Part shown: positions 27,130-62,396 of the stretch, piece after piece
Layout: the number at the start of each line of letters is the position of its first letter
Position numbering within the stretch: position 1 is the first letter of the stretch
DNA from: Leucoraja ocellata
Lineage: Eukaryota
Reading direction: 5' to 3'
NCBI GenBank assembly: GCA_036785375.1
Contig: JAWMAR010000276.1
Coordinates: forward strand, 1,364,001 to 1,428,000
Length of the DNA: 64,000 nucleotides
Notes under the pieces: model-generated
Told to the model about the DNA's origin: nothing
The model's input: the letters and a program-made list of their open reading frames with translations, nothing else
The model's database searches: none
Made by a program: the position numbers and the translations under genes

Positions 27130-27178
27130 ATGGAGACATCATTTTACATTATCCTACAGCTGTTAATACCTTTTGCAG
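27130..27178 (+). CDS. VJ-C1 receptor exon 1, signal peptide METSFYIILQLLIPFA
   Basis: gacATGg context, hydrophobic, G|gtatga phase 1. Confidence 0.8.
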
Positions 27179-30100
27179 GTATGAGACCCAACTGTAATAC
27201 TTTATACAGAATTTGATTTCACCAAGCAAATGGAGATTGCTGATGTTGGAATCTAGAATTGAAAAAAGAGTGCTGAAAGAACTTGGTGATCAAGGCAAAA
27301 AGTGTAAGTCATTATTTCATGATGAAATTCTAAATCAGTCCTGATCAGGGGCTCGAACCAAAACATTGACCTACACTTTTTCATAGTCATACGGCGTGGA
27401 AACAGGCCCTTTGGCCCAATTTGCTCACGCTGACTGCATTTGTCCCAACTACCTGCATTTGGCCCATATATTCTTCTAAACCTATCCTATTCATGTACCT
27501 GTCCAAATGTTATTTTTTAATATTGTGAAAGTACCATTTTTTTTGCCTTCACAAATGCTGTTTGATCCACTGATTTCTTCCAACGTTGTGTTCTTTAATT
27601 TTATCAAATTTGGATAGGCATTAAGTTCATACTATATGTTGTCAATTGCATGGAATGTAACAGTCAAAGTGAATGATAGCAAAATTGATGTGATTCTACT
27701 TTTGTTAGTGCATTTTGTGTTGAATTTACTTGATGAAATTGAAATGGGTTAGCAACACTGAATGTTTGCTATTACTTTATTTTCAAACCATCTTGAACAT
27801 TCACAATTGTGTTTTTTATTTTCCTAAGTTGAAATGACTAATATATATTGACACTTTTAAATTTCATGATATAGCATGCCACAGCCATTTGAGCTTTTAA
27901 ACTTAAAGAGCATTAATTTAAACTTTCCAAAACTTTCATTGTAATTCAGAAATGTGGTATTCCATGTAAGCCTATGATCCCCTGGTGTTGAGACCCTTTG
28001 TGCATTTATCCTTTGTATACCTCATTGTTCTTATGTTGCTTGTTTTGTTCATTTGTTTCAATCTGGTGATATTTTGTTAAAATACCATAATAGTCTCAGT
28101 TCATAAAATGGCTACAGCTGGCATTATTTTCCATTCCATGCCTTATTGTGTTGTTACATGGTACCTAATGGATTTGTTTTGGGAAGTATTGTTCTTGCAG
28201 CAGAGATAGAATATATCTTGAAAACAATTCTGTTCTATGGTATTTGAATGTTTAAAATTCCTCTGTTTACATTTTTAAAACATGCAGGAGCAGTGTTAAA
28301 ATTGTACTCCAAATACAGCTGCAAATGTACTAATATGAAGTGTTAAGCTATGAAGTTTCTCTACAAACAAAGAAATGTAATGTGTTGACCACTCATATGG
28401 CAATCGCAGAGGAGGTTCAAACAAGCACAGTTACATTTATTACAATTATTACCGCGGGGAAGATTAACTTTGACATACGGCATTTTAATTACATTTTCTG
28501 AATCTCCTTTTCTCAGCTGTACACAAGACAAATAATGATTTACAACAACCTGATACCCTTACCATCGCAAAAGGACATTCGATCTCATTACATTGTTCCT
28601 ATTCCATGCATTATCTATCAAGATTTACAGTAAAGTGGTTTTTATGCAATGATAGCCCATATTCTTTAACGATAATCGCAAACCTATCTACCGATAAACC
28701 TTGGGTTTCTCATTCTCGATATTGCGTAAGGCATAATTCTACATTGAAGGCATTCATCTTAACAATTATCGATGTTCAAGTCAGTGACAATGGAATCTAC
28801 TGCTGTGAGGTGATTCGGTTGGCACCACCGCCAACTTTAACAGGCAAAGGAAATGGCACCCTACTGAATGTAACTGGTAATTATTTTTTTAATTCTTTAA
28901 AAAGTGTTTTGGCAGTTTTACTTGGAACATTAATGCAAACTTTTGCAGCAATTAACTTTGTACAGTTGTGTCAGTTATATGAGAGATGTGTCAGATATGA
29001 TCATCACACGGCAGTGAGTTAGCTCTAAATCAGCATGCTGGCTGAAGTTCTTAATTTGTCCTTAGTGGTCCGGAATAGGAAGGTTTAGGACACATATATT
29101 TTTGGCAGGTTGGACCTACTTTTGAGATAACAAATAAAAACAGGAAACACTGGATATAATGGGACAGGCAGAGCCTGCAGAAAAGGAAACAGAATAAATA
29201 TTTCATATCTTTCTCCTTTTGTCAGAACAAGGAAATATTTGAAATTACTTTTTGTGCCTGTTTGTGTGAAAATTGAAGGTAGCATGATTTATCAATTTCA
29301 ATGATAACTATCTATACTTCCAAATGATATTTATCTTATTAAGGACTATTTTATTCATAGCTTTCACTGTTGTGAGAAATAAAGGAAGTTTAACTTAATT
29401 TTCATCAAAAGGCACAAATATAGGACTAACATCAGTCATGCTTGTTCTTACAGCAGTAGAGTGGTCTGAATTAGACATGAGGCCAAATGTGTTTCAAATC
29501 GACAGTGTAGTTGTGCTTGATTTAGATTGACAGTGAGATAATTTCAAGTTAATTTATCAGCAAAGAGAGGAAGCACAGTAGAATCGGGCATAGTCAAGGC
29601 TTATAGCCAAATCAGACCAGAATCCTAATTTATGATGCTGTTATACTAGAGACAGGAATTTAATTGACATAACGAACACATCATGGTTACAAAATAGACA
29701 CAAAAAGCTGGAGTAACTCAGCAGGACAGGCAGCATCTTTGGCGCGAAGGAATGGGTGATGTTTCGGGACAAGACCCTACTTCTTGACCCGAAATGTCAC
29801 ACATTCCTTCTCTACAGAGAAACTGCCTGTCCTGCTGAGTTACTCCAGTTTTTTATGTTTATCTTCGGTTTAAACCAGCATCTGTAGTTCTTTAACAGAA
29901 TGGTAACAAAATATTTTGCTTTAAATTTACAGCACAGCGGAGACCTTTTGTCCTTTGTATAAAAGCTATGTTTTATTCGTGCTGTACATTTTGCACATAC
30001 CATCATGGTTGACAAGTATCGGATTTTGTTGCATTTTGCTACCGAATGTATAAATTGTGTCAATATTTAATTGGTACTTTATTGTCTCAATTATGGTATG

Positions 30101-33100
30101 TGCTTAATGGTCAATTCTCTACTGCTTATGGATCAGCTTTGAAGAAACAGAAGAGAAAATAGAATCTTTATGAATGTCAATTTTCCTGATTAAGATCTAC
30201 AAAAATCCAACTGGCTCATTTATGACAAGAAAAAATGAAAGTAGATTTGCATCTATTGAAGGCTGCAGCAAACACATCTACCTTGAAGATAAACAAATAA
30301 GTAACTTTAATTCAGTTCTTCTCTGATTAACCATTAGAATGGATTGAAAATGATAACTAGACTGTTGTATTAAATGACACTCTTATGTGCAGTGAGGAAG
30401 CATTTAGGATTTGGTTGTTGGTTGTAGTATTGTGTGAGAACATAGTGGTTAACTTCAATTGACATCGATGGAAGAGGAAATTTGAAAAGGCTGATACAAC
30501 CAAAGCAAGAGGCCAAGAATGATCGTGGAACAGCATAGTCAACATGATCAAGACCCACAGTCAGAGAAGGCCAATTAAAATAAGTGAATGAGTAAAACAA
30601 AAAATAAGCACATTACTATACACATATGTCTGAAGAAGGGTCTCGACCTGAAACGTCATCCATTCTTTCTCTTCAGAGATGCTGCCTGTCCCGCTGAGTT
30701 ACTCCAACATTTTGTGTCTACATAGTATTCGAGTTAGGTTGGAAATGCGTGAAAGTGGCTAGTTATATGTGTGTCCTTACAGGATTGGAACAATAGTGGG
30801 AATAGGATGGTTGGGATGGGGATGAATGCTTTAGAATGAGGAAATAAGAGCAAAACATTTTGTATAATTATAGAGCTTCATATATATTTGTAGATTAAGC
30901 AAACAGAAAATATTCAGGTGTTCAGTTCTGCATAGAAAAATCATAACTGATTTCAAGAAATGTATATTTATAATTAGTACTGTTTATGTAATTAAATATG
31001 AACCTCAGTACCTTTGTAATTTGGATACCTTTGAAGAATGATATGCCACTTCAGAATTATACCATTGCTAATCTAACGAAAGCATGATCATGTTTCACAC
31101 CTTTTGGCCTCTCTCCACTGGCTGCCTATTCAGTATAGGATTCGTTTTAAAATTATTTTATTTACTTTTAAATCCCTAAGTGGTCTTGCCCCGTCCTACC
31201 TATCTGAGCTTCTTCACCCTTATTCGCCCTCCCGCTCTCTCAGGTCAGATGATCAGCTGCTCCTGATTGAGCCAAAGACTAAGCGGAAGCTCAGAGGGGA
31301 CCGTGCCTTTGCTGTGTCGGCTCCGAGATTGTGGAATGAATTGCCTCTGCACGTTAAACAGACCCCTTCTCTAGCTGTTTTTAAGACACTCCTGAAGACA
31401 TATCTGTTCTCCATGGCCTTTGTAGACCAGTGAGGTGTTAAATTGTTTATTAACTTTATTTGCTTGGTTTTGCTGCGTTGTTCGTACTCGTGTTTTATGT
31501 TTTTTAATTTATTGTTTGGATTTTTGTATGTAATTTATGCGCCTCGTGTTAGTTGTATGTTCTGTTGTTCTGCCTGTTTTATGATGTCTTGCTTGTTTTC
31601 TTTTTTCTGTACAGCACTTTGGTCAGCTTTGGTTGTTTTTAAGGTGCTTAACAAATAAAGTTGTTATTATTATTATTATTATTAATCTATCTTTTTTTTA
31701 TTACCAGCTTGTCCTTCTTTTCGGCTCATGGAATCTTACGACAAGATTTCTTCTTCACCATCAATTATCATTACATGCTTAGCATATGGGTTTTATCCAA
31801 ATATTATTACATTTTGGATACAACCAACCTGTCTCACCCACAGGCGCATCAGTACAAGCAACTCAACCAATCCCAATGGAACCTATAACTACAATGCAAC
31901 GTTTAGCATCTCCACAGAAAATTGCTCCAACTCCACTGAATTCATGTGTGTAGTTCAACATCCAGCATCACAGACCGAGCTAAATGTTACTATCATCATA
32001 GATGTTCATACAGTTGCTCAAGGTAGGATGGTATCATAAAATCAATTCAGCAGGAAGGCCAACAAAGCCCCTGCTGGAATGTGTTGTAAAATAAATGCTT
32101 TACTAGATATAAAGAAAGTGTGATAGAAATAAAGAAGGCCAAATTTACTTTTTTTAAATCAAATCAAACTCACTTTATAATATTACCTTATTAACAGGCA
32201 CACCTTATTTTTCTGGCTGGCTAATTGTTGTTTCCCACTTGAATTACTTCCTTGACATACAATCTCTGCTCTTCCTGATTTATGACACCCTCAAAGGAGG
32301 CACAGTTTTATTTCCTGATATCAACAAAATGATATCAAGAAATAATGTTGTGCCTCCTTTGTGGAAATTAACAAAAATGTATAATTATGTGATTGTAATC
32401 AGAATAAGAGTTCACACGCTAGATTCCTGGTGAAGAACCATGCATACTGGGGAAAGAAATGTTTAAAGCAAAGTCGCCAGACTTCTGGAGTTTAACATTC
32501 AATTCTGGAAATTAACAGGTTAACATTCCGGCTGCTGCAAGCTGAAGAATTAAGAGAAAGCTTATCAGTGCTCTCTATCCGATGTAGAATTCTTAACCCA
32601 AAAACCTTCATTACGATAAACTACATGTAAACACTGTGACTGCGAAATACTGCCATGAGTGTCCTTTGTTTAGGTAGGATCTGATGCCCTGTGTGAGCTG
32701 CTTTGCCTGTGGCTGCTTAGGGCTCCATGCCAACAAATTTATACATGTTGGGTTCCTTTCAGGCCAGAGCTGGAAATAGTCATGTTATTTCCTGATTTGC
32801 CGTCCACTTTTATTGAAGGGAAGTCACCGTTGCCTTCCAGCAGATCACATATTTGTTCTTGCTAGAGACAAGCAAGTGGATTGAGCACACACATTTGGAA
32901 TGGTTGTTGTCTTCTCAATGCTGCTGAATGTCATTGACGCACCCATGCTGCATTGCAGGATTCACATATCAACACAGGGATGTACCACAACTGGTATAAA
33001 ATTTATTCCCTTAATAGCCAGTGCATGCACAAGCATACCCAGTATTCTGGCAGCAGTATAAACACCTATATTCTTTGGTGATGCACTGTGTTTCAGTGCT

Positions 33101-36100
33101 TGAGCATCAGCAATAAACATAAAATTGGCAAGTGGAAACAAGGACATTAAGCTGAACATATGATACCGCAACACATGGATAGTATGCATATTATGAATAT
33201 CATGCCGGCATATACAGTCTGATGGAACAGACAGTCATAGCATCACATGGCCACCAATGGATTCGGGGATGACAAGGCCCTTCATTTCTGCCATATAGGT
33301 AGCTCCTCACTTACCAGAACCTTCTCAAATGGCTCAATCATACCATATTAGCAGAATTTTTGTGATAAACTAGATTAAGTGGGACCCGTTGGCTCCCTGT
33401 CACACGGATGCAACCGGTTCCCCAACACAATAGTCCACTCACCCGTTCCCCCAATGCAACCTGTCCCCCCAACTCAATATTGCACCACTCATGCATAGCC
33501 CTCACCTGCGCAGGCACGGCTCATTTCCCCTAATCCCCCAGCACTCCCTCCCCCTCTTCACCCTCCCTCTTCTTTCCCTTCTCCTCCCCAATCCCTCCCT
33601 CACCTCTCCCTCCATCTACTTTCCCCTACCCTCAGTCACTCCCTCTCTCCACAACTCCTCTCCCCTCCCTACCCCCCTCCTATCCCTCTATCCCCCACTC
33701 CTCACCTCCCCTATTCCCCCCACTATCCTTCCTGACCTCCCCCACTGTCCTCGTCTGCCTCTATTCCCCACTCCCTGCCTCTCCCACCCCCCCTCATCTC
33801 CCTCTATTCCCCCACTCTCCTTACCTCCCCCACTTTCCCCCTCTCCCTCACTACCCTTTCCTCTCCCTCAATCCCCCCACTCTCCCTCCTCATCTCCCCA
33901 GGATCTTTCCCCTCTCCTCCTCCCCTCCCCAATCCCTCCCTCTCCTTTCCCTTACCCTCAGTCACTCCCTCGCTCCATCCATAAAGAGCAGCATCTACAG
34001 TTCTCTCCTCCACAGGTCATCCATTGTTAGATGTGGTTTAGATCCAGTTGACTTGACGATTGGACCAGTTTGCATCGTGTGTGTGAGTTACTCAAACTCC
34101 GCGCAAACTGCTCAGCCACTCTGCAACCCGACTCTAGTAGAAGCAATGTGACACCCCACTCTGAGAGCTCAGGAAATTTCCTTTCTACTTTCAGCTTAAT
34201 TCACTTGGCAACATTCTAATTCAAGTCTGAAGTTTAAACTCCATTAATGGCATATAAACATTATCCCGGAAAACATTCCATCCATACATGATCTGGTGTA
34301 CATCATGCTGTTGTTTTCCAGACATTGTTGAGTATGAATCAGCCACGATATTTACCTTTGTTACAATTCAAGACATTTATTTTAGTTTTTGTTTAGTTTA
34401 TTATCACATTTACAGAAAAACATTTGTTGCGTGCTATTCAGTCAGCAGAAAGACAATACATTATTACATTCGAGCCATTTACAGTGTATAGATAGATATA
34501 TGATAAGAGAATAATGTTTAGTGCAAGGTAAAGCCACCAATACCCGTTCAAGGATAGTCTGAGAGTCATCGAAGAGGTGTATATCTATATATATATATAG
34601 ATATACACTTATTCTAATTACGTTAAACTTTTTTATTAGAAATTTTTTATTAGAAATTTTAATTAGAAATTACATATATATATAGATATAATTTCTAATT
34701 AAAAAGTAAAACATGTCATTAGAATAAGGATCCAAAAGCTGGGTTTGATTCTAAACTAAATTGAGGAATTACAAAACTTTGTCACTTTACATGACCTAAA
34801 AATTGTGCAAACATTTTCCACACACATTTCCATTTCCTCTATTCATAAAAAAACATGTTTTGTGGTTTTTGGTGTTGTGCTATTTCTAAAGGTCAGCAAA
34901 TAGATCTTTTAGTTCAGTTTATGTATGACCAGGTCTAATCCAGTCAAATAACTTTGTGCATTGTTATTTTTAAAGAAAATGAAAAGCATAAACCCCGATC
35001 TGGAAGGTGAATATACTGATGAAATAATTCAAATATGTTAAAGCATTTAAAAATAAATTAACTAAGAATTAGTGAAATCAAATAACTTTATGTAATCAAA
35101 ATTAAAGATCTCACTATAAAATAATTTCATAAACTAACAGCAAGAAAGAAAAGGACTTAAATGAACATAACAATTGAAAATAGTTATAGAAAATGGAAAA
35201 CCTGAGCACAACATTTGAATGGAGAGGTGGATTGATTTTTAAATGTGGTGGAAGTTATAAATAAAAAGCCTTCAAATGTTTGGTCCCAAGTTCAGATCAG
35301 ATTAGTTTATTATCATCTCCAAGAGGGTGGTCCTTGTTTCTTGTTCATATGAAGCTCACAGTGTATCAGTAAACATACACTAATGATAAATACAACAATA
35401 TGACGACGAGAGTAAAACAGCAGAATTGTACACGATTGTCATGCAAAATCCATGTAGTGTAAAAGAATATTAAAATACAAAAATAGAATAATCAATGAGG
35501 TAGAGCATCTCTGGAAATGGGGTGTAAAAGAGATGATTGTTTCAGGAGTCAGTTAGCAATGGGGAAAGTGGCTCTTAATTCTGGACATCTGGGCTTTCAC
35601 GCTCCTGTATCCTCTCACAGAAGGTATAAGGGGGAAAAAGGAATGGCCGGGACAGCAGGTACACTTGACAATACTTCCAGCCTACCTGATGCAATGCACC
35701 ATGAGGGTGGACTGTATGGAAGGAAGAGACAAGCCTGTGATGGACTGGAGATACAGGTAAACAAAATAACCATTGCAGGTCAGGGTGAGTGAGTCTGAAG
35801 AAGGGTCCCGATCTGAAACAGAGCCTACCCATCTCCTCCAAAGATGCTGCCTGACCTGCTGAGTTACAGTACTCCAGCATTTTGTGTCCTGTGATGGACT
35901 GTTTTGTGTTCAGTACTCTCTGCAGGTTCAGATGGTCAAGAACAGAGCAGATCCCATACCATTCTGAGATGCACCCTTCACAATGCATCCGGTAGTGCAT
36001 CTATAGAAGTTTAAGAAAATCCTCATGAAAAAGACATGTTGAATCTTCTCAGGCACATAAGAGAGTAAATGTATTGATGAGCTTTCCTGATCACTGCGTT

Positions 36101-39100
36101 AGTGTCAAAGGACCAGGTTAGGTTGTTGCTGATACAGATACAAAGAAACATTAAGCTGTCGACCGTCTTCACAGCCGCTCAGTTAATGAGGACAGGGTTG
36201 GGTTCATCCCCTCACCAGCCCTATTTCCTTAGGTCAACGATCAACTTTGGTAACAGTCCTGGGACTAGATAATGGAATCGCCAAATGAGGAAGAGTTAAG
36301 AACCTCTGTGAAGGTTTTGTGTAGGTGGTGCTCATCTCCGCTGCACAACCTCAACCATAAATAGACTTACCCTGAAACTGTAACTTGTCATCAGCGATAG
36401 AGATATTTTGGGAGAGCTGTTTTCAGAAAGATGATTTCCGCAATCTTTCAGAGAACCATTCAGATCCACGTCTTTGTCAGATGGACTTTGCTTTTTACAA
36501 AACTGTACGCCCTTGCTTTGCTGAATGAGGTAATCTGCTAACTCACTCTTGTTAATGTTGATGATATTATAAAGCAGAAAAGATCAATCATTAACATGCC
36601 ATCCTGATCATTCCCAGTTGGACCTTGAAAGCTCAGACATCCGGACTTAATAACAACAACTCTCCCATTGCTATCCAACTCCTGAACTAATCATCTCATT
36701 TCACACCCCTTTCCCCAGAGGTGCTGCCATGTAATCTTATTCTTAACTCTATCTCACTCGGTTTTCCACTTTTCCAATTTTTTTGTACTATTTTCAGATT
36801 GTACTATAATCTTTACACCATTCTCATGTTTTGCATTTGCCACTGCATTTATTGTTCATGTATTTATTGTTTACTCTATGAGCTTCATGCAAACTAAGAA
36901 TTTCAGTGTCCTACTGGAGTCTATAACAATAATCTAATCTGTATTTTCATTATTTTGAACAACAAATGAAGCCTCACTCTTTGAGAACTTTTCCCAGGAT
37001 CTTCATTGGCTTTTCAGGCCCAATGGGTTTTTACAAGTTGAAATCAAACTCCAGTTTTTATCAAATTCAAATGGGGTGAAATGGCATTATTAACTGGCCA
37101 AGCCAAAATATTCTGATTGATAACTTAAATTATATTTGTACAGAACTTTGTACATTTATACAAAAGGAAAACGGCTTTGAGACGACGCAAACTATAAATT
37201 ATTATTAATACTGCAATTATACTTTGGTAATGATTAATTGGAAGAGAAAAGAAAGTGTAAAGTGCAGGGAAATTAATAGTTGTAAAAAGTTTCTATAAAT
37301 AAAATGATTAAATGTATTGAACTTGAAATCGTTCTGGAGAGTTGTTTAAATCGACCATGCATAACGTGATTTAACAATTCCAATTTTCCACAGATCATAA
37401 ATGGAGTACCTGGATTTCCATTTTACTTTCCATAAGTGGAGGAACAGCTTGCCTTTTCCCTCTTGTGCTCTTCCTTATAAAATGTGCATGCAGTAAGTGA
37501 CTTCACAGCCAACTTTCCCAAAAGCAAACAATCCAGTTTTAGGTGTAATCCTGATTCTGTACAGTGATTCTCCCTTCATTAATTCCGTGTTTGCATCTAT
37601 TGTCCCACTTTTTAAAATTGACATAATAATATGAAGTAAATTATTAGATATGTCTACTTTTGAAGCTACATAATATATTCCTAACATGACATAAGATATC
37701 TAGTATTATGTTGATTCACATGCTTGATCAATGGTGTTTTATCATTAATGTTTTATTATTATTGTTTAGTGTTTTTTGAGTCGTTCGTAACTGTCAATGT
37801 ATGTCATGTTGTTACTTGAGGGCAGAGCACGAAGGTAAATTCCTTGTGTGAATACTTGACCAGTAAACCTACTTACTTACTTACTTACTTACTTATAATA
37901 TAGTTCACTTTACTACAGACTTTAAAACTAATTATTCCACTTCATTATTATTTCTCATAGAAAGGAAAGGAATGCAAGAGCAAACAAGAATTCAAAGTAA
38001 TCGAACTTTGAACCTTGAATGGAATAACATGGTAAATATTTGATTTTTTTTTAAAGATAATGTATATTTAGTCTTCTTTGGTTACTTATTCAACGCAAAT
38101 GTTGGACTGTCTGTCCCTTCTCAGAATTCTCTGGGATTTCCACATAAACAGACCAAGAGAAGCAGGCTTGTGAGTTTGAATGTATGTATGACAATGTTTA
38201 ATAGCCTGATGTGGACCTTGGATACTCCTGCAAAGTTTTAATTGCAATTACAAAATCAAGCAAACAGCTCATTAGAAATAGAAACATAGAAACATAGAAA
38301 ATCGGTGCAGGAGGAGGCCATTCAGCCCTTCGAGCCAGCACCGCCATTCATTGTGATCATGGCTGATTGTCCCCAATCAATAACCCGTGCCTGCTACTAG
38401 TAGGCTAGTCCTGATACTATGTATCACATGGTGAGGAAACAGTAATTAAATGAGTGATCCTATGGATTTTTTGGTAAATAGTGTAACAATAATAAATGAA
38501 ACAAAACTAGGTGATTCATCAATGGTAATGCCATTAAATGTCAAGGGTAGGTGGTTACTGTCACACTTGTTGGATATGGTCAGTGCAAATGGTTAATTTC
38601 GCTTGAAGTGGCAAACGATTGTTGGGCATAGCACATTGCCTGGAGGAACCCCTGATGAGATATCTGATGACTGGTATAAGTGATCAGCAGCAAAGTACCA
38701 TTTTGCTTTCTTTGAAGTATGATTGCATATTGGAGTGCTTTCTCCTTGATGCCCATTGACTTTTGACTGGCCAAGGATCTAGAATATCGTACCTGGCCAT
38801 CTGCAAAGTCAATCTTCTCACCTCTGAAAGGTGATGAGGACAGGAGCTGTGAAAATCTGGCAAAACCTAAACTGGACATCAGTGAACCATTTATTAGAAA
38901 GTCAGTGCAGCTTCACTGGCGCTTCCCAATGCTTTGTTGATGACTGAGACTAAGATGCCTGAGAACATGCTGAGTGGTTGGCACATTAAACCATTAGAAG
39001 TTAATGCACTGTGTTTTGCTATTTTGTAGAATGAAACCAATGAGGAAGAGATCTGCTATGCCAAACTGCAATGGGCAATGACACGGAGAGCTAGAAAGGA

Positions 39101-39146
39101 GGAGGAGGAGGTGGAGGAGACTGTGTACAGCCCAGTTCTTCAGTGA
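27130..39146 (+). CDS. IgSF inhibitory receptor, leader-VJ-C1-TM-ITIM/ITSM (CD28/NKp30-like V domain), 351 aa, 7 exons
   Basis: join 27130-27178, 28517-28876, 31708-32022, 37394-37492, 37961-38031, 38125-38169, 39030-39146 = 1056 nt; all GT-AG, phases 1,1,1,1,0,0, no internal stops; AATAAA at 39194 and 39208. Confidence 0.87.
28517..28876 (+). CDS. VJ-C1 receptor exon 2, V-set domain with germline J-like G strand
   Basis: ISLHC...VKWF...LTIIDVQVSDNGIYCCEV...APPP...GKGNGTLLNVT; 360 nt, phase 1-1. Confidence 0.93.
31076..31682 (+). mobile_element. 5'-truncated L2 LINE with open C-terminal frame
   Basis: SLHWLPIQYRIRFKI...GDRAFAVSAPRLWNELP...FKTLLKTYLF; AATAAA 31654, (tta)n tail, TSD TAATCTA at 31069 and 31683. 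Confidence 0.9.
31708..32022 (+). CDS. VJ-C1 receptor exon 3, C1-set domain
   Basis: ITCLAYGFYP, NPNGTY, FMCVVQH; 315 nt, phase 1-1. Confidence 0.92.
33535..33985. repeat. Polypyrimidine (C/T-rich) low-complexity tract
   Basis: ~450 bp almost devoid of G on the + strand. Confidence 0.85.
37394..37492 (+). CDS. VJ-C1 receptor exon 4, transmembrane
   Basis: WISILLSISGGTACLFPLVLFLIKCAC; ttttccacag and gtaagt; 99 nt, phase 1-1; no charged residue in the TM core. Confidence 0.85.
37961..38031 (+). CDS. VJ-C1 receptor exon 5, cytoplasmic
   Basis: KRKGMQEQTRIQSNRTLNLEWNNM; tttctcatag and gtaaat; phase 1-0. Confidence 0.78.
38125..38169 (+). CDS. VJ-C1 receptor exon 6, cytoplasmic
   Basis: NSLGFPHKQTKRSRL; cccttctcag and gtgagt; 45 nt, phase 0-0. 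Confidence 0.75.
39030..39146 (+). CDS. VJ-C1 receptor terminal exon with ITIM (ICYAKL) and ITSM (TVYSPV)
   Basis: attttgtag acceptor; NETNEEEICYAKLQWAMTRRARKEEEEVEETVYSPVLQ*. Confidence 0.85.
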   Translation, partial: NETNEEEICYAKLQWAMTRRARKEEEEVEETVYSPVLQ

Positions 39147-50289: not shown

Positions 50290-51530
50290 ATAGTCATATG
50301 GTGTGCAAATGGGCCCAACCTGCCCATGTCCCAACATGTCCCATCTAGATTAGTCTAACTTGCCTGCGTTTGTTTGGCCCATATCCATCTAAACCTGTCC
50401 TATCCACATACCAGTCTAATTGCTCCTTAAACATTGCTATAATCCCTGCCTCTGCCATCTCCTCCAGCTGTTTGTTGCATACACCCAGCACCCCTTGCCT
50501 GAAAATGTTATCCCTCAGATTCCTATAAAATCTTTTCCCCTTCACCTTATAACTATGCCCTTTGATTTGCGATTTCCCCCACCCTGGGCTAGAAACTCTG
50601 TGTGTCCACCTGATGTATTCCTCTCATGATTTTATACACCTCTATAAGATCACACCTCGTCATCCTGCTCTCCAGGTAATTGAGTCCCTGACTGCTCAAT
50701 CTCTCCCAACAGCTCAGATTCTCGAGTCCTGGCCACATTCTTGTAAATCTTCTCTGCACCCTTCCCAACTAAACATATTTTCTATAACACGGTGCCCAGG
50801 ACTGAATGCAATCCTCTAAATGTGGTCTCACTGACATCTTGTATAATTGCAATATGATCTCCCAGGTTCTATACTCAATACTCTGACTGATGAAGGCCAA
50901 TTTTCCAAAAGCCTTTTTGACCACATTGATGCTACTTTCAAGGAATGATGTACCTGCACATAGATCCCTCTGCTCTACAGCAATTCACAGAGCCTGACCA
51001 TTCACCATGTAGGTCTTACCTGTATTAAACTTTCCAAAATACAACGACTGAATTTTTTTCTGTATTAAATTCCATCAACCATTTCAGCTCAACATCCTGC
51101 TGCAATTATTGACAACCATCTTCACTATCTGCAATACCACCCACTTTTGTATCATCTGCAAATTTGTTAATCTTGCCATGTACACAGTGGTAGACTGGCC
51201 AGGGTGTCAGCTTGCCCGATGGCAAGTGAGCCCCTGATGAAGTGGGCCCCCTATATCAAGTGGGCCCCCTTTGTCTCCTGACAACCAATATTTTTAGACC
51301 CAGTCCGCCACTGCATGTATATACTCATGCAAATCATTGAAATAGGTACCAAATAGTAATGGGTCCAGCACCGAACCCTGAGGCACACTATTAGTCACAG
51401 ACCTCCAGTCCAAGAAGCAGCCTTCCACCATCACCCTCTGCTCCTTCCAAGAAGCTAATTTTCTATCCATTCAATTATCTCTCCATGGATCCAATGTGAT
51501 TTAACCTTCCAGAGCAGCCTAACACGTGGT
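50290..51530 (-). mobile_element. CR1 LINE fragment
   Basis: degenerate RT (KFADDTKVGG on minus strand at ~51140-51170) and CR1 3' UTR. Confidence 0.8.
51185..51313. mobile_element. hAT-type MITE nested in CR1
   Basis: cagtggtagactgg...ccagtccgccactg TIRs; 8-bp TSD catgta(c/t)a. Confidence 0.8.
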
Positions 51531-51838
51531 ATTGGCTCATGGAAGTCATTGAGTATTGACATGCACTGAAGCACATGAGATCATCGGTCTTAGGATCACA
51601 ATCCACAGGCCAAGGGTCCAGTGTTAGCCCAGCCGTGTCAACAGCAGTGCCCTCTGACAATAAAGGTCAACCCTGTGACCCTGGAGGATGTGGACCATTT
51701 ATTATTTATTTGGAGCAGTCTTCTGATGAAATTTTGCATCAACTTGGTTTGTTATCCATAGCTCCCGAGACACTGTTCCTGAAGATTTGGAGAAGATGCT
51801 TAAAAAAATAACTTGTTCTAATTTTAATCTTCAAGGCA

Positions 51839-51893
51839 ATGGATTGTACGTTGAGAAAGATGCTGTTGTCATTGCTGCTGTTCCCTAGCTTGG
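51839..51893 (+). CDS. IgV-NLR signal peptide exon MDCTLRKMLLSLLLFPSL
   Basis: gcaATGg; G|gtgagt phase 1; acceptor-like cttcaag at 51835 suggests an upstream UTR exon. Confidence 0.8.
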
Positions 51894-54800: not shown

Positions 54801-57800
54801 TTCACAATTCTGTTCCCAAATGCAAATTATAAAATTAATTACATTATAATATATCTTGATTTGAAAATGTGGTTTAGCTCAATTCTTAATTGAACACTAA
54901 CCATTTGTTTTTTTTTGTGTTCTGAACATCGTAGATATATCGGAGAATAATACATGCGGTGGCACCGATCCAGCTTCAGAAAGGAAAAAGGTTGTACTCA
55001 TACTTCCATTGCTACTTGTCATTTTAATTGCAGTTGGAATTTTGCATTGGCAAATGAAAAACAAGGAGAAACCAGATATTGAAGAGAGTGAGTAAAATGT
55101 TTAGGATTTTGGCCATTAATCACACAAACTGAATACCTATTCGAGAATGTGTTCAGAACACTGCATTGGGAATGGATTTCTAGGCACTTTCAGCCATAGT
55201 GTATATGACATCCTTTGAGAGGAACATGTTCTAACATGTGGTTTATTCTATTTCTTTTTAGTGATTCATTTACTGGAAGACAATATAAAAGGTAAAGAAC
55301 CAACCTCTGTTGAGATTTTCTTAAGTTATGCAGACTTACCTACGTGGAGCTGGCCGGCTTCGGGGCGTGGAGAGCGGCGGTGGCACGTTGATGCGACCCG
55401 GCTCCAGTGGATGGTAACACCGGGAGCTCGCGGATCCCCGGTGGGAGACTGCTTTGCGGGGCACCGGCAGCGGCGACTTCTCCAGCCCGAATTGCGGGGT
55501 TGAGAGTGACCTGGAGGGGGGCCCTACAACGCCCTGCGCGGCCTTAATTTGCCGCGGACTAGCGCCCGCCGGGGGCTTTGACCTCGACTTCGGGAGGGAA
55601 ATGGAGTGCAGGGGAGAGACAAGAACTTTGCCTTCCATCACAGTGAGGAGGAGAGCCACTGTGATGGATGTTTATGTGAATAGTGTTGATGTGTGTTTTG
55701 GTTCTTTTATTGTATTGTATGGCTGCAGAAACTACATTTTGTTTGAACCTCATGTGAGGTTCAAATGACAAATAAAGGTATTGTATATTGTATATAGTTT
55801 CTGCCCACAATAGTAGAAGTGGTCTCCTTGTCCACTACTGGAATCTGCCATGGAATTCAGCCTTATTTCACCCTTCAGAAGGGTGTGAAATAATTGTTTT
55901 TAGAATGTGGTCGTTGAATGAATAAAATAATTAAATATGAATTTTGAAAGAAAGAACATACAAAATATATATAAAATCCAGACCTGTTTGAGCAAAGTAT
56001 CTTAACAATAAATTAATTTTATTCTTTTCAGGAAGCCCATCCAGTCTCACAGCTCATTCAGCAGCTTGACCTTTTAAGCCACATCAGGCTAGAATGGCAG
56101 ATAACTGAAATTATTGATGCAGATGGAATTTGACGGCAGTCTTGTCACTTCCTCATCACCTTTACTGAGATTGTTTGAATCTTCAATTCCACAGCTGCTG
56201 TGGTGGGATTTAGGCTGATGTCACTTGATCAATGGTCCAAGCCTGTAGATGTTAATCACTATGCCAGCATACTCCACTGCTTGCCCTACTCCTCTCTGTA
56301 CAGCCTCATAGTGAACCTTGACACCATTGGTTCAATCAGTGTCCCTCACCCCTTGGTTTGGTGTAATCATATAGTGACCAAAGTAGAGTCCCACCAGTAT
56401 GTCCTGAATGGTACCGTAGTGTTGGGTGCAAGGATAGTCCCTTGTTTCTCACTCCGTTTTGCTGCCCTCCAAACCATGGATCCATTCTACAATGGAGTTG
56501 CATGCTGGAAGACCATAATCTAGCCATTGAGTATTATTTGGCAGGAGCATCATCATTCTGCATCATCCCCAAGCACCCAGGAATCCAAGGTTCACCTTCA
56601 AACTGTATCAGATTTTATTATGTGAAATATTTCCATAATATGGATATTTTGAACTGTGTAACAAAGTGCCAACCAAAAGCTGGTGTAGATGATGAATGGA
56701 AAATCTGCAAGATTTTAATACCTGTGTCAGCAGGGCATACTGACCAACAGTTGGCAAATGGAATAGTATAGGTGGTTACTTGATGATTGGCATGTACAAG
56801 GTGGGCTGAAGAGCTTAAACCTGAAGCGATGTGGGAATTCTTAAAGGGGATCAGCAACTTGATGGATATCTGATGCTCACAGTTCTCACATTTTGTTAAT
56901 CCATGATAATAAAATACTTGCTCGTTCTGAGAAATGTGTTTTTTTTCCTTCAGATGCCATTCTGAATTATAAAGAGTACATCTTGAAAGATAAAATGCAT
57001 TTATGTTGTTCATTAACACAACGGCGAATCGAAAACTATTCGGTTGCCAGAACCATCAATGTTACCAACTTGAAGGAACAAGACCCAGACGTTGATCTTA
57101 TCAGGAGCGATGACTCAAATATTGCACAAGAAGTACAAATTTCACAACTGCTGTCATTGCTTCGGAAAGAAAACTTCTCAAAGCGAGTCCTGCTGGTAGG
57201 TGATGCAGGAGTAGGGAAGAGTTGGACTGTTGTCAGCATGGAGCAAGAGTGGGCATCTCAACCAACCCACCCCTTGAGGTGCGTCTTTGTTCTCAGATTC
57301 CGTGACTTGAATGAGGTTAAAGGAAAGACATCTCTCCGGGATCTGCTGAAGAAGCATTGCACACCTTTGTCATCAGTCCTAACAGAACTCCTCTCGAACC
57401 CTCAAGATGTGTTGATCATTTTGGACGGGCTGGATGAATTCGCCCATCAGTTGCAATGGAATCCATCAGGCTGTGATTTCAACCTGGATAGTGAGGCTGA
57501 AGTAGGTGTTCTTGTTTCCAACCTAATATCCAAGAACCTCCTTCGAGAAGCCCAGGTGTTGGTTACCTCCCGGTGGAATACCAAGCAGATAGAATTTAAC
57601 AAGAAGTACTTTGATCAGCTTTTTGTTATCTCTGGCTTTACCAATGATCAGCTGAAAAGATATTGTGAGGTGTTTTGTGGAGAGAAGCAAAAGGCGGAAG
57701 AAATGTTTCAACGCATTACAGAGAATGCAACCATCAAATGTCTGGCTTCCAATCCCCTCAACAGCTTCATTCTGTGCAATATTTTGGACAAGTGTACCAG

Positions 57801-60800
57801 CTGTCAACGAGCGACTGCAAATGTACCAGTGACAAATAGCAAAGTGTTTACATTGTTGCTGTACAGTCTGTGTAACTGCAGCACGAGTAAAGAAACAGAC
57901 GCTGAGAATAAGAGTGAAGAGGAGAAGCAATTGTTTAAAGACACCATCCTGAAACTGGGAGAACTATCCTTCAACTCTCTGCTATCAGGGAAACTTAAAA
58001 TAAATGTGACTGATCTGAAGACCTATGGAATAGACCCAGACATCCTTTCAAAATATCTCTCAAATCTTGTGCTGGGCTGTAAATGCCAAGGAGTCTTTGA
58101 GTTCCACCATGCATTGCTGAAGGAACAATTTGCAGCTTTGTATTGTGCTACTTTACTCAACAATGAAGCTGAAGAGTTGGTCAAGTGTCTGGATCTGTGG
58201 TGCTTTGGGAAAAGGCCACTAAATCAAATGAGCCAATTTTATTTGCAATCTTTTCAACCTGACCACACAGAGAAACTGTACAATTTTCTGAGGTTTCTCA
58301 CTGGCTTCTTAACCGCAGGAAGAGATGGCAAGTTGTGGAACTATACAACTCCTCTCCCCCCTTCTACAGCCAGAGCTCTCACAACATGGTTCAAAAACAG
58401 CTTTCAGCGAGACATTAAGAAGGCAGAATTGCTGAATTTGATGCACTGTCTCTTTGAACTGAATGATGCCACTGTAACGGCAGAAGTATCTCCTTGCATC
58501 CGAGATGTGGATTTTCACAACGTTTCTCTGAGCCCACTCGATCTGCGTGCTTTGTGCTACTGTCTCAATCATTCCACCGTGGAGGAGATGGATTTGAGGC
58601 ACTGTAGCATTGGTGATAAAGGAATAAAGCAGCTCCAAGAAATACTAGTCAAGTGCAGAACTCTTCTGTGAGTAATGATTTTCAACAGAATATTAAGCTC
58701 CAGTTGCACTAATCTACCTTCTTGCATGCACAATGTTTGTCGACATGTTTTATATCTTTGTCACATTTTATGCCCTGCATGTCCTGATTTATTCTAGCCC
58801 AGCTAATATTTGTGCCTGAAAGTTGTAATGAAATATATACAAATGGAGATACTACTCTTCAAGACTAGAATGGAAACAATTTGTGCAATTATCTCCCTCA
58901 CCTACATTGTTCTATGGTAACCCCACCCTCCTCCAATGTTGCCCTGTGGAGCCACAGAGCTGCATTATAATAACCACAAGGGCAGGGATTTAATTATATG
59001 CATTCATTCTAGTTGTTGCTCTTATGAATACACTTGCATTGATCACTATAAAAAGACTTGGGGGCGGTTTGCTTTATCTGCAAATACACCTGTTGGGGGT
59101 TTGACCTTTCTGTAAATCTTGCCCCACCCCATTTCCAACGCAGCAGTGTCAATGGACAGGTATTCATAAATCTAGAGGAACAGCATCTCCTATCTCACCT
59201 GGGTGGTCTACAACCTAATGGCATCAAATTCATGTAACCCCTCTGTCTATTTGTTGTCTCATGATACACCTAGATTATCTGTATGTCACTGTATGTCATG
59301 TTGTTACTTGTGGGTGGAGCACCTAGGCTAATTCCTTGTATGTGAATACTTGGCCAATAAACTTACTAACTTACTTACTTGTCTCATATGCCCCTTCTTT
59401 TCAAACCCAACCCCTCTTTCAGTTTCTGTAATCACCCTACCCCATCCCAAATGATTCCATCTGTGTACACACCCACTTGATTTCCCAATTCCCTCCACTG
59501 TTCCCCTTTTGCCCACTATCCCACCCTAATGTGGTTCCACTCACCATTATCCTTTCTTATCAGATTCTATAATCTACCCATGTACCCATTATCACCTCCT
59601 CAGCTTCAGGTTCATCTCAGCATTCCTCATCTGGGCCCACCTATTACTTAAGGACACAAAGTGCTGGGGCAACTCAGCAGGTCAGGCAGCATCTTTGGAG
59701 AACACGGATCGCTGACATTTCAGTTCGGGACCCCACTACAGACTGATCATTAGTTTGAAGAAGAATCCTGACATGAAACATAATCTATTACGTTCTCCAG
59801 AGATGCTGCCTGACCTGCTGAGTTACTACAGCATTTTGTGTTCTTTTGTGTAAATCGGCATCTACAGTTCCTTGTTTCCTCTTTTACTGTACCACTCTAC
59901 TGCTTTTTTTTTAATTGCTGTTTTTTTCCCTTTTTCCTTCCGCCCACAATATCTAAAAGAATATGTGATTCTGTTCCATTCTGTTTGTAGTTTGTTTGTT
60001 TGTTTGTCTTTTTGCACAAAGTCCGCGAGCATTGCCACTTTTCATTTCACTGCACATCTCGTATGTGTATGTGACGATTAAACTTGACGACTTGACTTGA
60101 CTTTATGCTCTAAATCCTCGACCGCAAACATCGACTGTCTGTCTGCCGCCACTGATGCTGCTTAACCCGCTGAGTTCCTCCACCAGTTCATTTTTGCTCC
60201 AGATTCCTGCGTTTGCTGTCTCTTGTATATCCAAATATCCAAACATTGATTATTATCAACAAGGTTGAATTGATTTTGTGTATTAGAAAGTGCTCAAGCA
60301 GAAACAAAGGAGCTCTTAAACTATGTAATTACCTGAAGTCATTTTAAGCCCCATTTGCACTATCGTTCAAAAATCATTGCCCAGACACACGTGTTAGACT
60401 AAGGTTAGACTCTGCACTCCCAGCAGTGCCATAACTGTTTATTTTGCAGCTACCTTTGCAGGCAGCAGTTTGTGAGGATTGTGTTCTGTCCCCAGGCACT
60501 CAGGTCTCTAATTGTTTTCAACGTCTTGTGTTTCCAGGGTAAGCTCCAACAAACTGACTGTAGAGTCAGCAAAGAGTTTGAGTGCCGTCCTTGAAGACCC
60601 AAAGTGCAGGATTGAGACATTATCGTGAGATTTTTCATCACATAAATCCTCTTGTAAAATTCTCCAAGTTTCTATAGAGCTTCTAATCGCTGACATTTGC
60701 CATTTGGTTCCGTTTTCAGGTGTGGTACAAACTCTTTTGGTTCGGCGGGGGCTCAGATTCTGTGGAAAGCTCTGGCACAAAACAGAAGTCTCAAAATCCT

Positions 60801-62396
60801 TCGCCTGTATGACAATGGGATCACAGTTGAAGGCACAGAGAACATGACTCAGTACCTGACATGCAACAAAACTCTCCAGAAACTCTTGTAAGTAGCTGGT
60901 AGATGTGAGAACATAAGCAGTATATTTGATAAATGCTCACACGGATTGGTTTGTGTGCAATTATGTTGGCGTTGGTGAGTTTGAGATGTGTTATGTAAAT
61001 GTGAACATGTAGAAACAAGGTGCGGCAGATGCTAGTTTACCCGGGAAAGACACAAAAAGCTGGAGTTATGCAGCGGGTCGGGCAGCATTCCTGGAGAACA
61101 TGGAAAAGTAACGTTTTGGGACAAGACCCTTTGCTCAGACTGATTAGTCTGAAGAAGTGCCCCGACCTGCAGGTTTGATGAATCTGATTGATCAGTTTGA
61201 TCTGATTGATCAATTCAGACTGATTAAACTGAAGAAGGGTCCCGACTAGTAATATTATATATCCATGTTCTCCAGGGATGCTGACTGACCAGCTGAGTTA
61301 CTCCAACATTTTGTGTCTTTCCTTGTATAAATGTGGCTTTTTTTTTCTTTCCCAGTCTCCATAGGACCCTCTACCACACAAGGAACACTGCTGTTCCAGG
61401 CATGACCGTATGTTTTTGTTTCAGTGTGAAGGAGCGGCAGGAAAGGAGCAATGATGGAGAGAGCATTCTAACTCAAGACTGTGGCTGAATCACCATTAGC
61501 AATTGCACTAAGATTAGCTGGCAAAGATTACGCCTTTCGGAAGGAACTGGGCACATTCTTAATTGAGTAATAAATAAAAGAAACGAGTTGTGGGTTTGGA
61601 AATAGTTTAGATCAGTAAAAGGAAATTAGGATATAAGGGAACATGTTCAAATTTTCAAATAGGAATAATAATATTTGAAGAAGAAACATTTGCATGGATA
61701 AGAGAAAGAGTAGAAAGAGTGAGCAAGTACAAAGCTCCCTATATGTCTGCACAGTCAGGATGCTGAATGGCCACTTCCTCATTGTAGAATTTGATGATTA
61801 TTAAGACAACGTGAATGAGATGGTTGGAATTTATTTTTCTAATTCCTGATTTAAATACGATTGAAGCATTCACTAATTTTCATTGCCTTGTTGCTTTCAG
61901 TTTGTGTGCAAACAAACTTGATGACCTTGAACAGAAAAACATTCAACAAGTCGAAAAGCTGTGTCACGGGCTAAAGATCATCACTAAAATCAGAGACGAT
62001 GAAGAGCTCTTACTCCGAGTTGAAAGTCATGTTCAAATGCTTGCCTCCCTTGAGCAGAGTTACGGCACAGAGTGGCTGTGCAAACTATTGAAATCCATTC
62101 TGAAAGACCTGGGAGATGAGAGTACCATACCCGATGTGGACACACGGGTAAGGATAGGAAAGATAAAAGCAAATATTAACAAATATCTTCAGATGAACAA
62201 AGTCACCATAATTGATGTTCCAGACACGGAGAATGTGTTGCAGCTCCATACCCCTGCACCACTTCCTCGAAACAACTTCCTTAAACGTTTCTTTTCTACG
62301 TCACAGTGGTGCAGCGGTAGAGTTGCTGCCTTACAGCGAATGTATCGCCGGAGACCCGGGTTCTGTCTACACGGAGTTTGTACGTTCTCCCCGTGA
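51839..62396 (+). CDS. Predicted membrane-anchored NLR: signal peptide - B7-family IgV - TM - NACHT - LRR - C-terminal non-LRR domain, 1016 aa, 8 coding exons
   Basis: join 51839-51893, 52595-52942, 54935-55087, 55262-55291, 56954-58667, 60538-60624, 60720-60887, 61901-62396 = 3051 nt; all GT-AG, phases 1,1,1,1,2,2,2, uninterrupted frame. The 55291-56954 junction is inferred, not shown by a transcript. Confidence 0.75.
52595..52942 (+). CDS. B7/butyrophilin-family IgV exon (CD276/VTCN1/HHLA2-like)
   Basis: DILLPCAF...LIITWQR...VVYSFY...EHQDKAFLDRTQLFLSEFTKGNASLKL...SDVGNYTCFV; 348 nt, phase 1-1. Confidence 0.93.
54037..54064 (+). ncRNA. Minimal hammerhead ribozyme core in a Penelope-derived repeat (best + strand copy)
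   Basis: CUGAAGA-A-GGGUC-UC-GACCC-GAAA-CGUC; matches CUGANGA...GAAA...UH. Confidence 0.55.
54935..55087 (+). CDS. Stalk plus transmembrane exon
   Basis: ...RKKVVLILPLLLVILIAVGILHWQMKNKEK...; cgtag and gtgagt; 153 nt, phase 1-1. Confidence 0.85.
55262..55291 (+). CDS. 30-nt cytoplasmic mini-exon (MIHLLEDNIK)
   Basis: tttctttttag and G|gtaaag; phase 1-1, frame-preserving. Confidence 0.7.
55336..55795 (+). mobile_element. GC-rich non-autonomous non-LTR element (family of 6612-7443)
   Basis: gccgggggctttgac...ccttccatcacag...ggctgcagaaac...aaatgacaaataaa with (tattgta)n tail. Confidence 0.65.
56032..56069 (+). CDS. Candidate alternative terminal exon (GSPSSLTAHSAA*) giving a short IgV-TM isoform
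   Basis: strong acceptor ttttattcttttcag, phase 1, TGA at 56067-56069, AATAAA at 56908. Confidence 0.45.
56954..58667 (+). CDS. NACHT exon (NBD, HD1, winged helix, HD2, first LRR-like repeats)
   Basis: Walker A GDAGVGKS, Walker B LIILDGLDEF, sensor-1 VLVTSR, WH FEFHHALLKEQFAALY; acceptor ttttttttccttcag phase 1, donor CT|gtgagt phase 2. Confidence 0.95.
60538..60624 (+). CDS. LRR exon (one 29-aa RI-like repeat)
   Basis: VSSNKLTVESAKSLSAVLEDPKCRIETL; 87 nt, phase 2-2. Confidence 0.88.
60720..60887 (+). CDS. LRR exon (two 28-aa repeats)
   Basis: CGTNSFGSAGAQILWKALAQNRSLKILRLYDNGITVEG...NKTLQKL; 168 nt, phase 2-2. Confidence 0.9.
61901..62396 (+). CDS. Terminal exon: last LRR/cap plus non-LRR tail; last 31 aa SINE-derived
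   Basis: ttgctttcag, phase 2; FLCANKLDD... open to TGA 62396. Confidence 0.8.

Follow-up and report, generated by a model that had tools for sequence, protein, structure and literature searches.

Gene content of the locus

The window, a stretch of 64,000 nucleotides from the skate Leucoraja ocellata, contains two genes that we refer to as gene A (27130-39146) and gene B (51839-62396). Both are + strand genes whose introns are of the GT-AG type and whose spliced frames are open, and the stop of A (39146) is separated from the ATG of B (51839) by 12,692 bp, in agreement with an original prediction, made from the letters of the window, of two adjacent and co-oriented genes ~12.7 kb apart. The absence of a further gene between them was also borne out, as none of the 70 open frames of at least 60 aa in the gap matched Pfam (E 0.001), a scan that small exons and non-coding genes could escape. 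The flanking neighbours of A, an ACOT/BAAT-like gene and a tetraspanin gene, are not the CD28-family synteny markers of PMC11599192 (~160 kb, 150 of 284 flanking frames scanned).

The 336-aa product of the 6 exons of gene A (Pfam V-set and C1-set) starts with a signal peptide, after which come an Ig domain of joined VJ type with the PPP loop, a C1 domain, a transmembrane (TM) helix without charge and two tyrosine motifs. Gene B has 8 exons encoding 1016 aa (Pfam V-set, NACHT and HD2), in the order signal peptide, B7-family V domain, TM helix, NACHT, LRRs and helical cap.

27130..27178, + strand: A exon 1, leader; ATG, GT donor, phase 1; matches the N-termini of the Mobula, Narcine and Heterodontus orthologues
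28517..28876, + strand: A exon 2, Ig V domain of joined VJ type, carrying the PPP loop and, in the G strand, GxGT; Pfam V-set E 7e-15
31708..32022, + strand: A exon 3, Ig C1 domain; Pfam C1-set E 2e-7; best PDB matches IgM constant domains and UrIg2
37394..37492, + strand: A exon 4, TM helix without charged residue, with conserved Ser-Gly-Gly-Cys pattern; hydropathy peak 2.17
37961..38031, + strand: A exon 5, cytoplasmic; aligns in orthologues
39030..39146, + strand: A exon 6, tyrosine motifs, namely an ITIM (Tyr308) and a second ITIM/ITSM (Tyr331), and stop
51839..51893, + strand: B exon 1, leader; N-terminus identical in P0001 and P0040
52595..52942, + strand: B exon 2, B7-family Ig V domain; Pfam V-set
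54935..55087, + strand: B exon 3, short stalk and TM helix; hydropathy peak 3.05; in run X1, lies between V and NACHT after splicing
55262..55291, + strand: B exon 4, 10-residue cytoplasmic linker; its length explains the gap in contig X1 record 1
56032..56068, + strand: B alternative last exon, used by a B7-V/TM isoform without NACHT; AG acceptor 56030-56031
56954..58667, + strand: B exon 5, pre-NACHT helix, NACHT (Walker A/B intact), winged helix, HD2 and first LRRs
60538..60624, + strand: B exon 6, LRR; length agrees with contig X1
60720..60887, + strand: B exon 7, LRRs; frame and X1 contig
61901..62396, + strand: B exon 8, final LRR followed by the three-helix cap and the tail; helices from the model

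Gene A as a likely inhibitory VJ-C1 receptor

The sequence of gene A points to a likely inhibitory immune receptor of the VJ-C1 kind, with two ITIM-type motifs and a CD28-like V loop. V and J features are found in a single exon, which is followed by a C1 exon, as in the non-rearranging VJ-C1 receptors, a type proposed as the antigen-receptor precursor. The best PDB matches of exon 2 are TCR delta and CTLA-4 (E about 2e-6), and the CD28-family proline motif of the CDR3-like loop is present together with the G-strand GxG. In the orthologue alignment the PPP loop and GxGT are each found in 9 of 10 rows and the C1 domain is kept, while the TM is uncharged, with its Ser-Gly-Gly-Cys pattern, in 11 of 11 orthologues. 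The two tyrosine motifs are retained in all 11 species; the ITIM/ITSM tail originally described holds for the window and for 3 of these species, where the second motif has Thr at -2 (ITSM, TxYxxV/I), but not for the other 8, which carry two ITIMs. Some A orthologues bear the automatic RefSeq labels SIRP-alpha-like or Ig light chain-like.

Several candidate identities for gene A were rejected. CD28X and PD-1 are among them, and CD28 and PD-1 have no C1 domain; NKp30, with its V-only ectodomain and a charged TM residue for adaptor pairing, differs from A in both respects, as C1 is present and the TM is uncharged in 11/11 orthologues; and UrIg and UrIg2 have three or more C1 domains where A has one. 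The earlier designation of A as a CD28/PD-1-like receptor is upheld for the CD28-like V loop and the likely inhibitory tail but not for family membership, because the CD28 family is defined by a single extracellular IgV, a TM and a cytoplasmic tail (PMC11599192), and the extra C1 places A outside that published definition. In the parts of the same paper available to us, the family (nearest motifs CTLA-4, CD28X, CD28HL3 and PD-1) has YxC-x6-PPP and the G-strand GxG in common with A, and PD-1 and CD28HL3 likewise have a tail with an ITIM plus an ITIM/ITSM, whereas A is without EYEDM and YxxxxT and has the additional C1 (PMC11599192). None of six A identifiers or motifs occurs in the text, figure images not included, of the nine supplements of that paper. 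With PRARP, UrIg and UrIg2, as far as the accessible portions of their descriptions go (PMC10751288, PMC12227049), and with SIRP-alpha, A shares a single-exon VJ followed by C1, and it differs from them in having one C1 only, a TM with two inhibitory motifs, and the PPP loop.

Gene B encodes a transmembrane NLR with a B7-family V domain

Gene B was originally described as a B7-like ligand with an NLR tail, and this is confirmed: a B7-type V domain, a TM helix, NACHT and LRRs occur in a single spliced transcript. In run X1, a single contig of 2,604 nt carries the V, TM, NACHT, LRR and last exons joined together with the introns skipped, and in run X5 a contig links V and NACHT, both runs being classed as RNA by software guess and not by record; in X24, a declared RNA run of which about 5% was read, the B exons have a depth of about 1-3, too shallow for splice joints. 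The NACHT-less isoform is represented by P0130 (214 aa), which ends in the peptide of the alternative exon, and contigs from three runs cover 55883-56799. A deletion of 1 nt near 62268, by comparison with a second genomic copy and P0001, gives rise to the last 34 codons of B in the window; both forms of the tail were seen in sequencing-run contigs. The skate assembly carries duplicated stretches.

Such duplications, and the existence of P0130, might suggest that two neighbours, a B7 gene and an NLR gene, were wrongly merged into B during annotation or assembly. We consider this extremely improbable and have rejected it, unless the contigs are themselves misassembled: because spliced contigs in two runs join V, TM and NACHT without introns, the fusion is not an annotation artefact, and it is common to the 17-18 species and 12 distant proteins described below.

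The best PDB matches of the B V domain are CD276 and VTCN1 (per-domain E values around 1e-13), followed by MOG, PD-L1 and butyrophilins. An N-terminal IgV of B7 type is therefore present, although not the V plus C ectodomain typical of B7 proteins, as the V exon is spliced straight to the TM exon. The remainder of the protein is an NLR by its NACHT with Walker A/B, winged helix, HD2 and C-terminal LRRs; exon 5 matches Pfam NACHT (E 8e-27) and HD2 (E 2e-15), and its model is closest to NOD2 (Foldseek E 2e-31). Pfam and the structure model revealed no CARD, PYD or TIR in B, nor any of the N-terminal domains (AD, BIR, CARD or PYD) that mark NLRA/B/C/P; the RefSeq NLRP/NLRC3/NOD1-like names are automatic. 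The NLR effector position is instead taken by the V-TM exons, which are joined in phase 1 to the NACHT exon, and the TM-to-NACHT link is modelled as low-confidence stretches and is probably flexible. For the C-terminal cap the top VIA match was the NLRX1 C-terminal bundle 3un9 (Z 8.5, rmsd 2.5, 64 aligned), a score not clear of other bundles (next 7.9) and one that helical bundles reach by chance; Foldseek gave no match at E 0.001 (E 2.1).

To our knowledge, the NLRs described in vertebrates are found in the cytosol or bound to organelles, and the B7 ligands have short tails. Gene B has a NACHT-WH-HD2-LRR fold closest to that of NOD2, with a B7 V and TM in place of the CARDs. NLRX1 and B both lack a death-fold effector, and the modelled three-helix cap after the LRRs of B has a tentative likeness to that of NLRX1, yet the N-terminus of NLRX1 is a mitochondrial targeting sequence and that of B a signal peptide, B7 V and TM. 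Compared with CD276 and VTCN1, B shares the B7-type V but is without the Ig C domain and has NACHT-LRR in place of a short tail. The sea cucumber Apostichopus japonicus has two proteins, AjNLRC4 and AjNLR-new, that share with B a membrane Ig-TM-NACHT arrangement (PMC8699970, PMC13133943). Going by the parts of these papers at hand, AjNLRC4 is the nearest transmembrane NLR that we found; it has two Ig domains, two TMs, no LRR and microbe binding (PMC8699970), whereas B, a vertebrate protein, has one B7-type V, one TM, LRRs and a helical cap. Our literature searches yielded no account of a vertebrate Ig-TM-NACHT-LRR protein, although earlier work on PRARP, B7 evolution or primordial immune complexes may list A or B; six B accessions were named in no paper, and the accessible parts of a whale shark NLR survey and a 2025 fish NLR review show no such transmembrane Ig NLR. 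Gene B is a solid novelty that is well supported alone, while its pairing with A is put forward as a proposal.

Conservation and linkage

The layout of B is found in 17-18 shark and ray species (the Rhincodon model is without the N-terminus) and, alike, in 12 more distant relatives (<50% identity) among the 150 matches listed; the count of 12 leaves out P0135 and P0175, whose V and NACHT are arranged differently, and P0074, which has no clear TM. The V domains of the family group apart from the other B7/butyrophilin genes of the skate genome (tree, 90/92), the NACHT regions form one clade (SH-like 100), and Walker A and B are canonical in every elasmobranch row but P0060. In Amblyraja, the first cysteine of the B V domain has been lost, and P0085 has an identical NACHT-LRR-cap layout with a weak CARD match where B has V-TM. 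Matches to A were found only in elasmobranchs (9 among 4232 candidates) in a word-index search, which returned no A for 8 species that have B; as this search is insensitive, the missing matches are not proof of loss.

Linkage that was not conserved in other species had been named as counting against the original prediction, and this did not occur. A and B are on one chromosome, as judged by contigs of equal length, in 9 of the 9 species with accessions for both, and their accessions are consecutive in 6 of these, one shark included, accession order being a proxy for gene order and the count having no control neighbour pair. Gene order in sharks is generally slow to change, and classical CD28/B7 pairs are unlinked in mammals. 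The copy numbers are uneven: Pristiophorus has two B and one A, and in Amblyraja B models also lie on a second chromosome, where no A is listed.

Does A bind B?

Prediction of the A-B complex, which had been suggested as a check, gave an ipSAE of 0.57 against 0.00 for the best of 3 controls, these being unrelated proteins and not other B7 domains and the score carrying no interface detail. Runs agreed in at least 92% of contacts, with a partner pLDDT of at least 87. The pass is a weak one: the mark is reached by 51/78 solved pairs and 2/108 mismatched pairs, and scores of 0.60 or less include just 5/78 solved pairs, yet all 4 passing mismatches. The score may also be a memory of PD-1/PD-L1, because like complexes have been solved (PD-1 and PD-L1 chains in 4zqk). 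No co-evolution of the V domains beyond the species tree was detected in 8 species (partial r 0.46 for A-V against 0.45 for the A-C1 control). We put the chance that A binds B at close to even.

It may be that the genes are neighbours by history, with B having another CD28-like or VJ receptor as its partner and A another ligand, a possibility that we hold to be substantial though on balance unlikely. It would accommodate the uneven copy numbers, the 8 species in which B is without a found A and the lack of co-evolution signal, and family likeness could explain the weak complex score. There is also no shortage of other candidates in the genome, with at least 7 other contigs carrying A-like V exons and about 50 other B7/butyrophilin-like V matches. 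Against it, the linkage holds across the shark-ray split, and one of those 7 contigs, C175, again pairs A-like V genes with B7-like genes within 100 kb (rough post-hoc chance 0.009, with Ig-gene clustering ignored). At C175, two V-C-V B7-like genes are interleaved with three V receptors that have an EIPPP loop, a C1 exon being found for two of these receptors; V-domain trees do not join A or B with the C175 genes, the placements being separate or unresolved.

A possible inside-out checkpoint

Our leading interpretation, to which we assign a probability of roughly one in three, is that A and B are a genetically linked receptor and ligand, with B7 clustering controlled from inside by the NLR tail and A applying a phosphatase brake. 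The tail of B would sense in the cytosol, and NACHT oligomerisation, which in this family clusters the N-terminal part, would here cluster the TM and B7 V at the cell surface. A on an adjoining immune cell could then read the clustered V domains, its ITIMs recruiting SHP-1/2 as expected from family knowledge, and the NACHT-less isoform may be an unregulated ligand.

The original prediction had the signal run in both directions, with A binding B in trans and clustering of the ectodomain driving or restraining NACHT oligomerisation in the B cell. The linkage and the weak pass of the complex score suit this module equally, the Walker motifs are intact, and AjNLRC4 is reported, in the portion of the paper available to us, to oligomerise once its Ig ectodomain binds ligand, acting via actin (PMC8699970). 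The outside-in half, however, has no obvious effector to work through, given that CARD, PYD and TIR are all absent from B and that its sole extra element is the three-helix cap, with its tentative likeness to that of NLRX1; the probably flexible TM-to-NACHT link also argues against it. We find this version doubtful, and the inside-out arrangement fits better because the B7-V/TM takes the place of the NLR effector domain.

Still less probable is that B works as AjNLRC4 does, its Ig domain binding microbes directly and its NACHT tail driving uptake, with A incidental. AjNLRC4 is an Ig-TM-NACHT protein that binds bacteria, by the available part of its description (PMC8699970), and in a comparison of features P0072 comes closest to echinoderm V-set+NACHT clusters (0.92 and 0.90). 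The V domain of B is, however, like CD276 and VTCN1, B has the LRRs that AjNLRC4 is without, and its core is closest to vertebrate NOD2/NLRP structures.

In the inside-out reading, we tentatively suggest that B represents an old jawed-vertebrate class of transmembrane NLRs, with a B7 domain replacing CARD/PYD, that converts cytosolic sensing into ligand display for the linked VJ-C1 inhibitory receptor. If so, the output of this NLR would be an immune checkpoint between cells, and the conserved NLR and B7 protein would be a direct physical link from innate sensing to lymphocyte co-signalling at the base of the jawed vertebrates. Were A to bind B, a cell with internal danger could signal straight to a neighbouring immune cell, and with A as its receptor B would belong to an orphan-free B7 pair on a non-rearranging VJ-C1 receptor. 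A comparable layout is that of NKR-P1:Clr, in which an inhibitory receptor gene adjoins that of a putative self-ligand, according to the parts consulted (PMC4041007, PMC3819593); those proteins are C-type lectin-like, whereas A and B are of the Ig superfamily and their binding is weakly predicted. Of the butyrophilins, BTN3A1 shares the B7-type V domain with B but carries B30.2 where B has NACHT-LRR. In BTN3A1, this cytosolic B30.2 sensor domain is coupled to an ectodomain read by lymphocytes, which is an inside-out logic.

Organization of the locus

The A-B locus is real: gene A, a VJ-C1 receptor gene, and gene B, coding for a B7-type V domain, a transmembrane segment (TM), NACHT and LRR, both yield open frames after splicing, with GT-AG introns, and the window's proteins are 93–99% identical to Leucoraja and Amblyraja records, which places the source among the rajid skates. 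The original prediction placed the two genes side by side, co-oriented and ~12.7 kb apart with no gene detected between them, and this arrangement was confirmed, as they lie on the same strand at a spacing of 12,692 bp and none of the 70 intervening open frames had a Pfam match. The assembly (G000, 3.44 Gb) holds the window at C276:1364001-1428000, with the following features (window coordinates unless a contig, C, or extracted stretch, L, is named):

27130-39146, plus strand: gene A
51839-62396, plus strand: gene B
1818-12376, minus strand: acyl-CoA thioesterase/BAAT-like (ACOT/BAAT-like) exons upstream of A, with Pfam PF04775 at 5560-6027 and 12098-12376
G000:C276 about 1460600-1475400: tetraspanin gene ~35 kb downstream of B (L034:2608-3078 and L035:6989-7378)

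The closest solved relative of the tetraspanin is TSPAN15, and we take the gene to be TSPAN33-like. An LTR retroelement with a long open pol frame (RNase H, integrase, chromodomain) lies just downstream of the window (L031:178-2355). A second copy of the whole region lies on this contig, ~333.5 kb upstream (C276 about 1030000-1130000 vs. 1363600-1464700), with 97–99.5% identity across the 100 kb compared. Gene A is almost unchanged between the two copies, its exons being identical bar a 3-nt gap; those of B differ by ~2%, and gene B and the sequence beyond it by ~2–3%. Additional loci of the assembly are likewise present twice, and the second copy may have arisen by recent duplication or represent a haplotype that was retained.

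Gene B is a B7-type V domain joined to an NLR

The B product (1016 aa) is encoded by exons for a leader, V, TM, a 10-residue linker and a single large NACHT exon, followed by three more. Its V domain is B7-type (CD276, VTCN1), and its cytoplasmic part was modeled as NACHT-WH-HD2-LRR, nearest NOD2 (pLDDT 80; Foldseek E 2e-31), ending in three predicted helices that most resemble the NLRX1 cap, with a score that helical bundles often reach. No CARD or PYD was found in B; TM and B7 V fill the N-terminal (effector) place of an NLR and join the NACHT exon in phase 1. The B fusion is transcribed, because contig 1 of X1, a sequencing run that the tool guessed to be RNA, runs through V (52675-52941), TM, NACHT, LRR and the last exon without introns, with gaps that match two small exons of B in length, and the V-NACHT join is also present in a second such run, X5. 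The prediction of a B7-like domain with an NLR tail was thus borne out in one spliced transcript. An alternative last exon at 56032 gives a NACHT-less isoform (protein P0130). A 1-nt deletion at about 62268 extends the C-terminus by 34 residues of repeat-derived sequence; the sequencing-run contigs include the long form and the form without the extension, and the long one is also seen in a model from Amblyraja.

Of 7996 proteins scored against the NACHT exon, 14 matched at E 1e-60, 12 of them with a listed V-set domain; these matches and their cluster members place B in 18 named elasmobranch species, with no chimaera among them. Among 150 proteins listed by a profile search against 1.84 billion representatives, 15 resembled B in V as well as in NACHT, and the V-TM-NACHT layout was shared by 12 (33–50% identity to B in V, 25–42% in NACHT). 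Judged by clustering, these 12 are probably from other vertebrate lineages, because a single 50% cluster takes in the sharks and rays. B and its relatives form one group in trees of V (90/92) and of NACHT (SH-like 100; 21 of 37 rows). In this genome there is no close B paralog beyond the second copy, vs. at least 148 other NACHT loci at ~30% identity. Three NLRs without Ig or TM (P0085, P0091, P0105) carry the same post-LRR helical cap and are possible cytosolic relatives; P0085 has a weak CARD match at the N-terminal place held in B by TM and B7 V. Two Ig-TM-NACHT fusions (P0135, P0175) have other ectodomains (V-C1; repeated butyrophilin-like V), and since these differ, the fusion seems to have arisen more than once.

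RefSeq names for B proteins are automatic (NLRP-, NLRC3- or NOD1-like), and B likely represents an undescribed transmembrane NLR family. Ig-TM-NACHT receptors are known in sea cucumber, although, as described, they have no LRR, which B has (PMC8699970, PMC13133943). No description of a vertebrate Ig-TM-NACHT receptor was found in the literature searched; an earlier mention in comparative VJ-C1/B7 work is possible.

Gene A is a non-rearranging VJ-C1 receptor

The A product (336 aa; exons for leader, V, C1, TM and two cytoplasmic exons) is a non-rearranging VJ-C1 receptor. V and J features are united in a single exon with a PPP loop, the best solved relatives of the V domain are TCR delta and CTLA-4 (E about 2e-6; PD-1 is weaker), and the second Ig domain is C1. 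The CD28 family has been defined by a single IgV-TM-tail plus synteny (PMC11599192); A, with its added C1, is therefore CD28-like in its ligand loop and not a member, and the predicted CD28/PD-1 likeness holds for the loop. A word-index search of limited reach gave orthologs from 11 named species, all of them sharks or rays, and none from elsewhere. The predicted ITIM/ITSM tail held in part: the uncharged TM and two tyrosine motifs are kept in 11/11 orthologs, the second motif being an ITSM in only three and an ITIM in eight. From these motifs A is likely inhibitory. Expression of A is supported by P0024, an assembled product in which V, C1 and TM are joined; P0024 and P0046 have a frame-shifted tail that lacks both motifs, and P0026, without C1 and TM, is possibly a soluble or aberrant form.

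Linkage and predicted pairing of A and B

Conservation of linkage, proposed as a check on the pair, is indicated by proxy in both sharks and rays: in all nine species with accessions for both genes, the contigs of A and B have the same length, and the A-to-B accession gaps, taken as a proxy for gene order, are as follows:

Gap 1: Leucoraja, Amblyraja, Mobula hypostoma
Gap 2: Hemitrygon, Hypanus, Chiloscyllium plagiosum
Gap 12-13: Narcine, Mobula birostris
Gap 368: Heterodontus

Against a strict pair, eight species have B with A not found, Heptranchias has A with no B listed, Amblyraja and Pristiophorus carry additional B models for which no A is listed, Amblyraja B has lost a V cysteine, and there was no A-B co-evolution signal. 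Complex prediction of the two V domains, also proposed as a check, was made without alignments and scored 0.57 (0.56–0.59) vs. 0.00 for three unrelated controls, a result that the tool grades weak and that is to be read with the caveat that solved structures exist for such complexes. Contact agreement between runs was ≥92% and partner pLDDT ≥87. The score mark was reached by 51/78 solved pairs and 2/108 mismatched pairs; scores at 0.60 or under, however, included only five of the 78 solved pairs yet all four passing mismatches. We put the odds that A V binds B V at about even and regard a ligand-receptor pairing as plausible; that the genes are neighbors whose products do not bind, as the exceptions to a strict pair would allow, we consider nearly as probable.

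NACHT oligomerization in NLRs clusters the N-terminal domain, and BTN3A1 controls its ectodomain inside-out via B30.2. By analogy, NACHT oligomerization in B would cluster the TM/B7 V ectodomain as an inside-out signal, sharing its logic with BTN3A1, in which the sensor is B30.2, and the two ITIMs of A would bring about SHP-1/2 inhibition in the A-bearing cell. The original prediction had a bidirectional contact module, with signaling outside-in through B; this is improbable, because B has no death-fold effector and ectodomain clustering is its simplest output. Direct binding of microbes by the B ectodomain, as in AjNLRC4, seems more improbable still.

In a further cluster (C175:1081500-1237100, L002-L017), three EIPPP-loop V receptors and two B7-like genes of V-C-V-TM layout are intermingled over less than 160 kb. 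V-C-V is the layout of HHLA2. The EIP motif marks CD28H, the receptor of HHLA2 (PMC11599192). A C1 exon was found for two of the three receptors (1142120 and 1201997), one candidate TM starts with an arginine and another is uncharged, and no Walker A frame was present in 200 kb. These features suggest paired receptors beside HHLA2-like ligands. We counted C175, one of seven other contigs with A-like V matches, toward the A-B pairing; descent of the two pairs from a common ancestor is not seen in the trees. Other V exons of CD28-like type, with GxG and a proline loop, occur on G000:C531, C384, C524, C999 and C271 (L041-L046).
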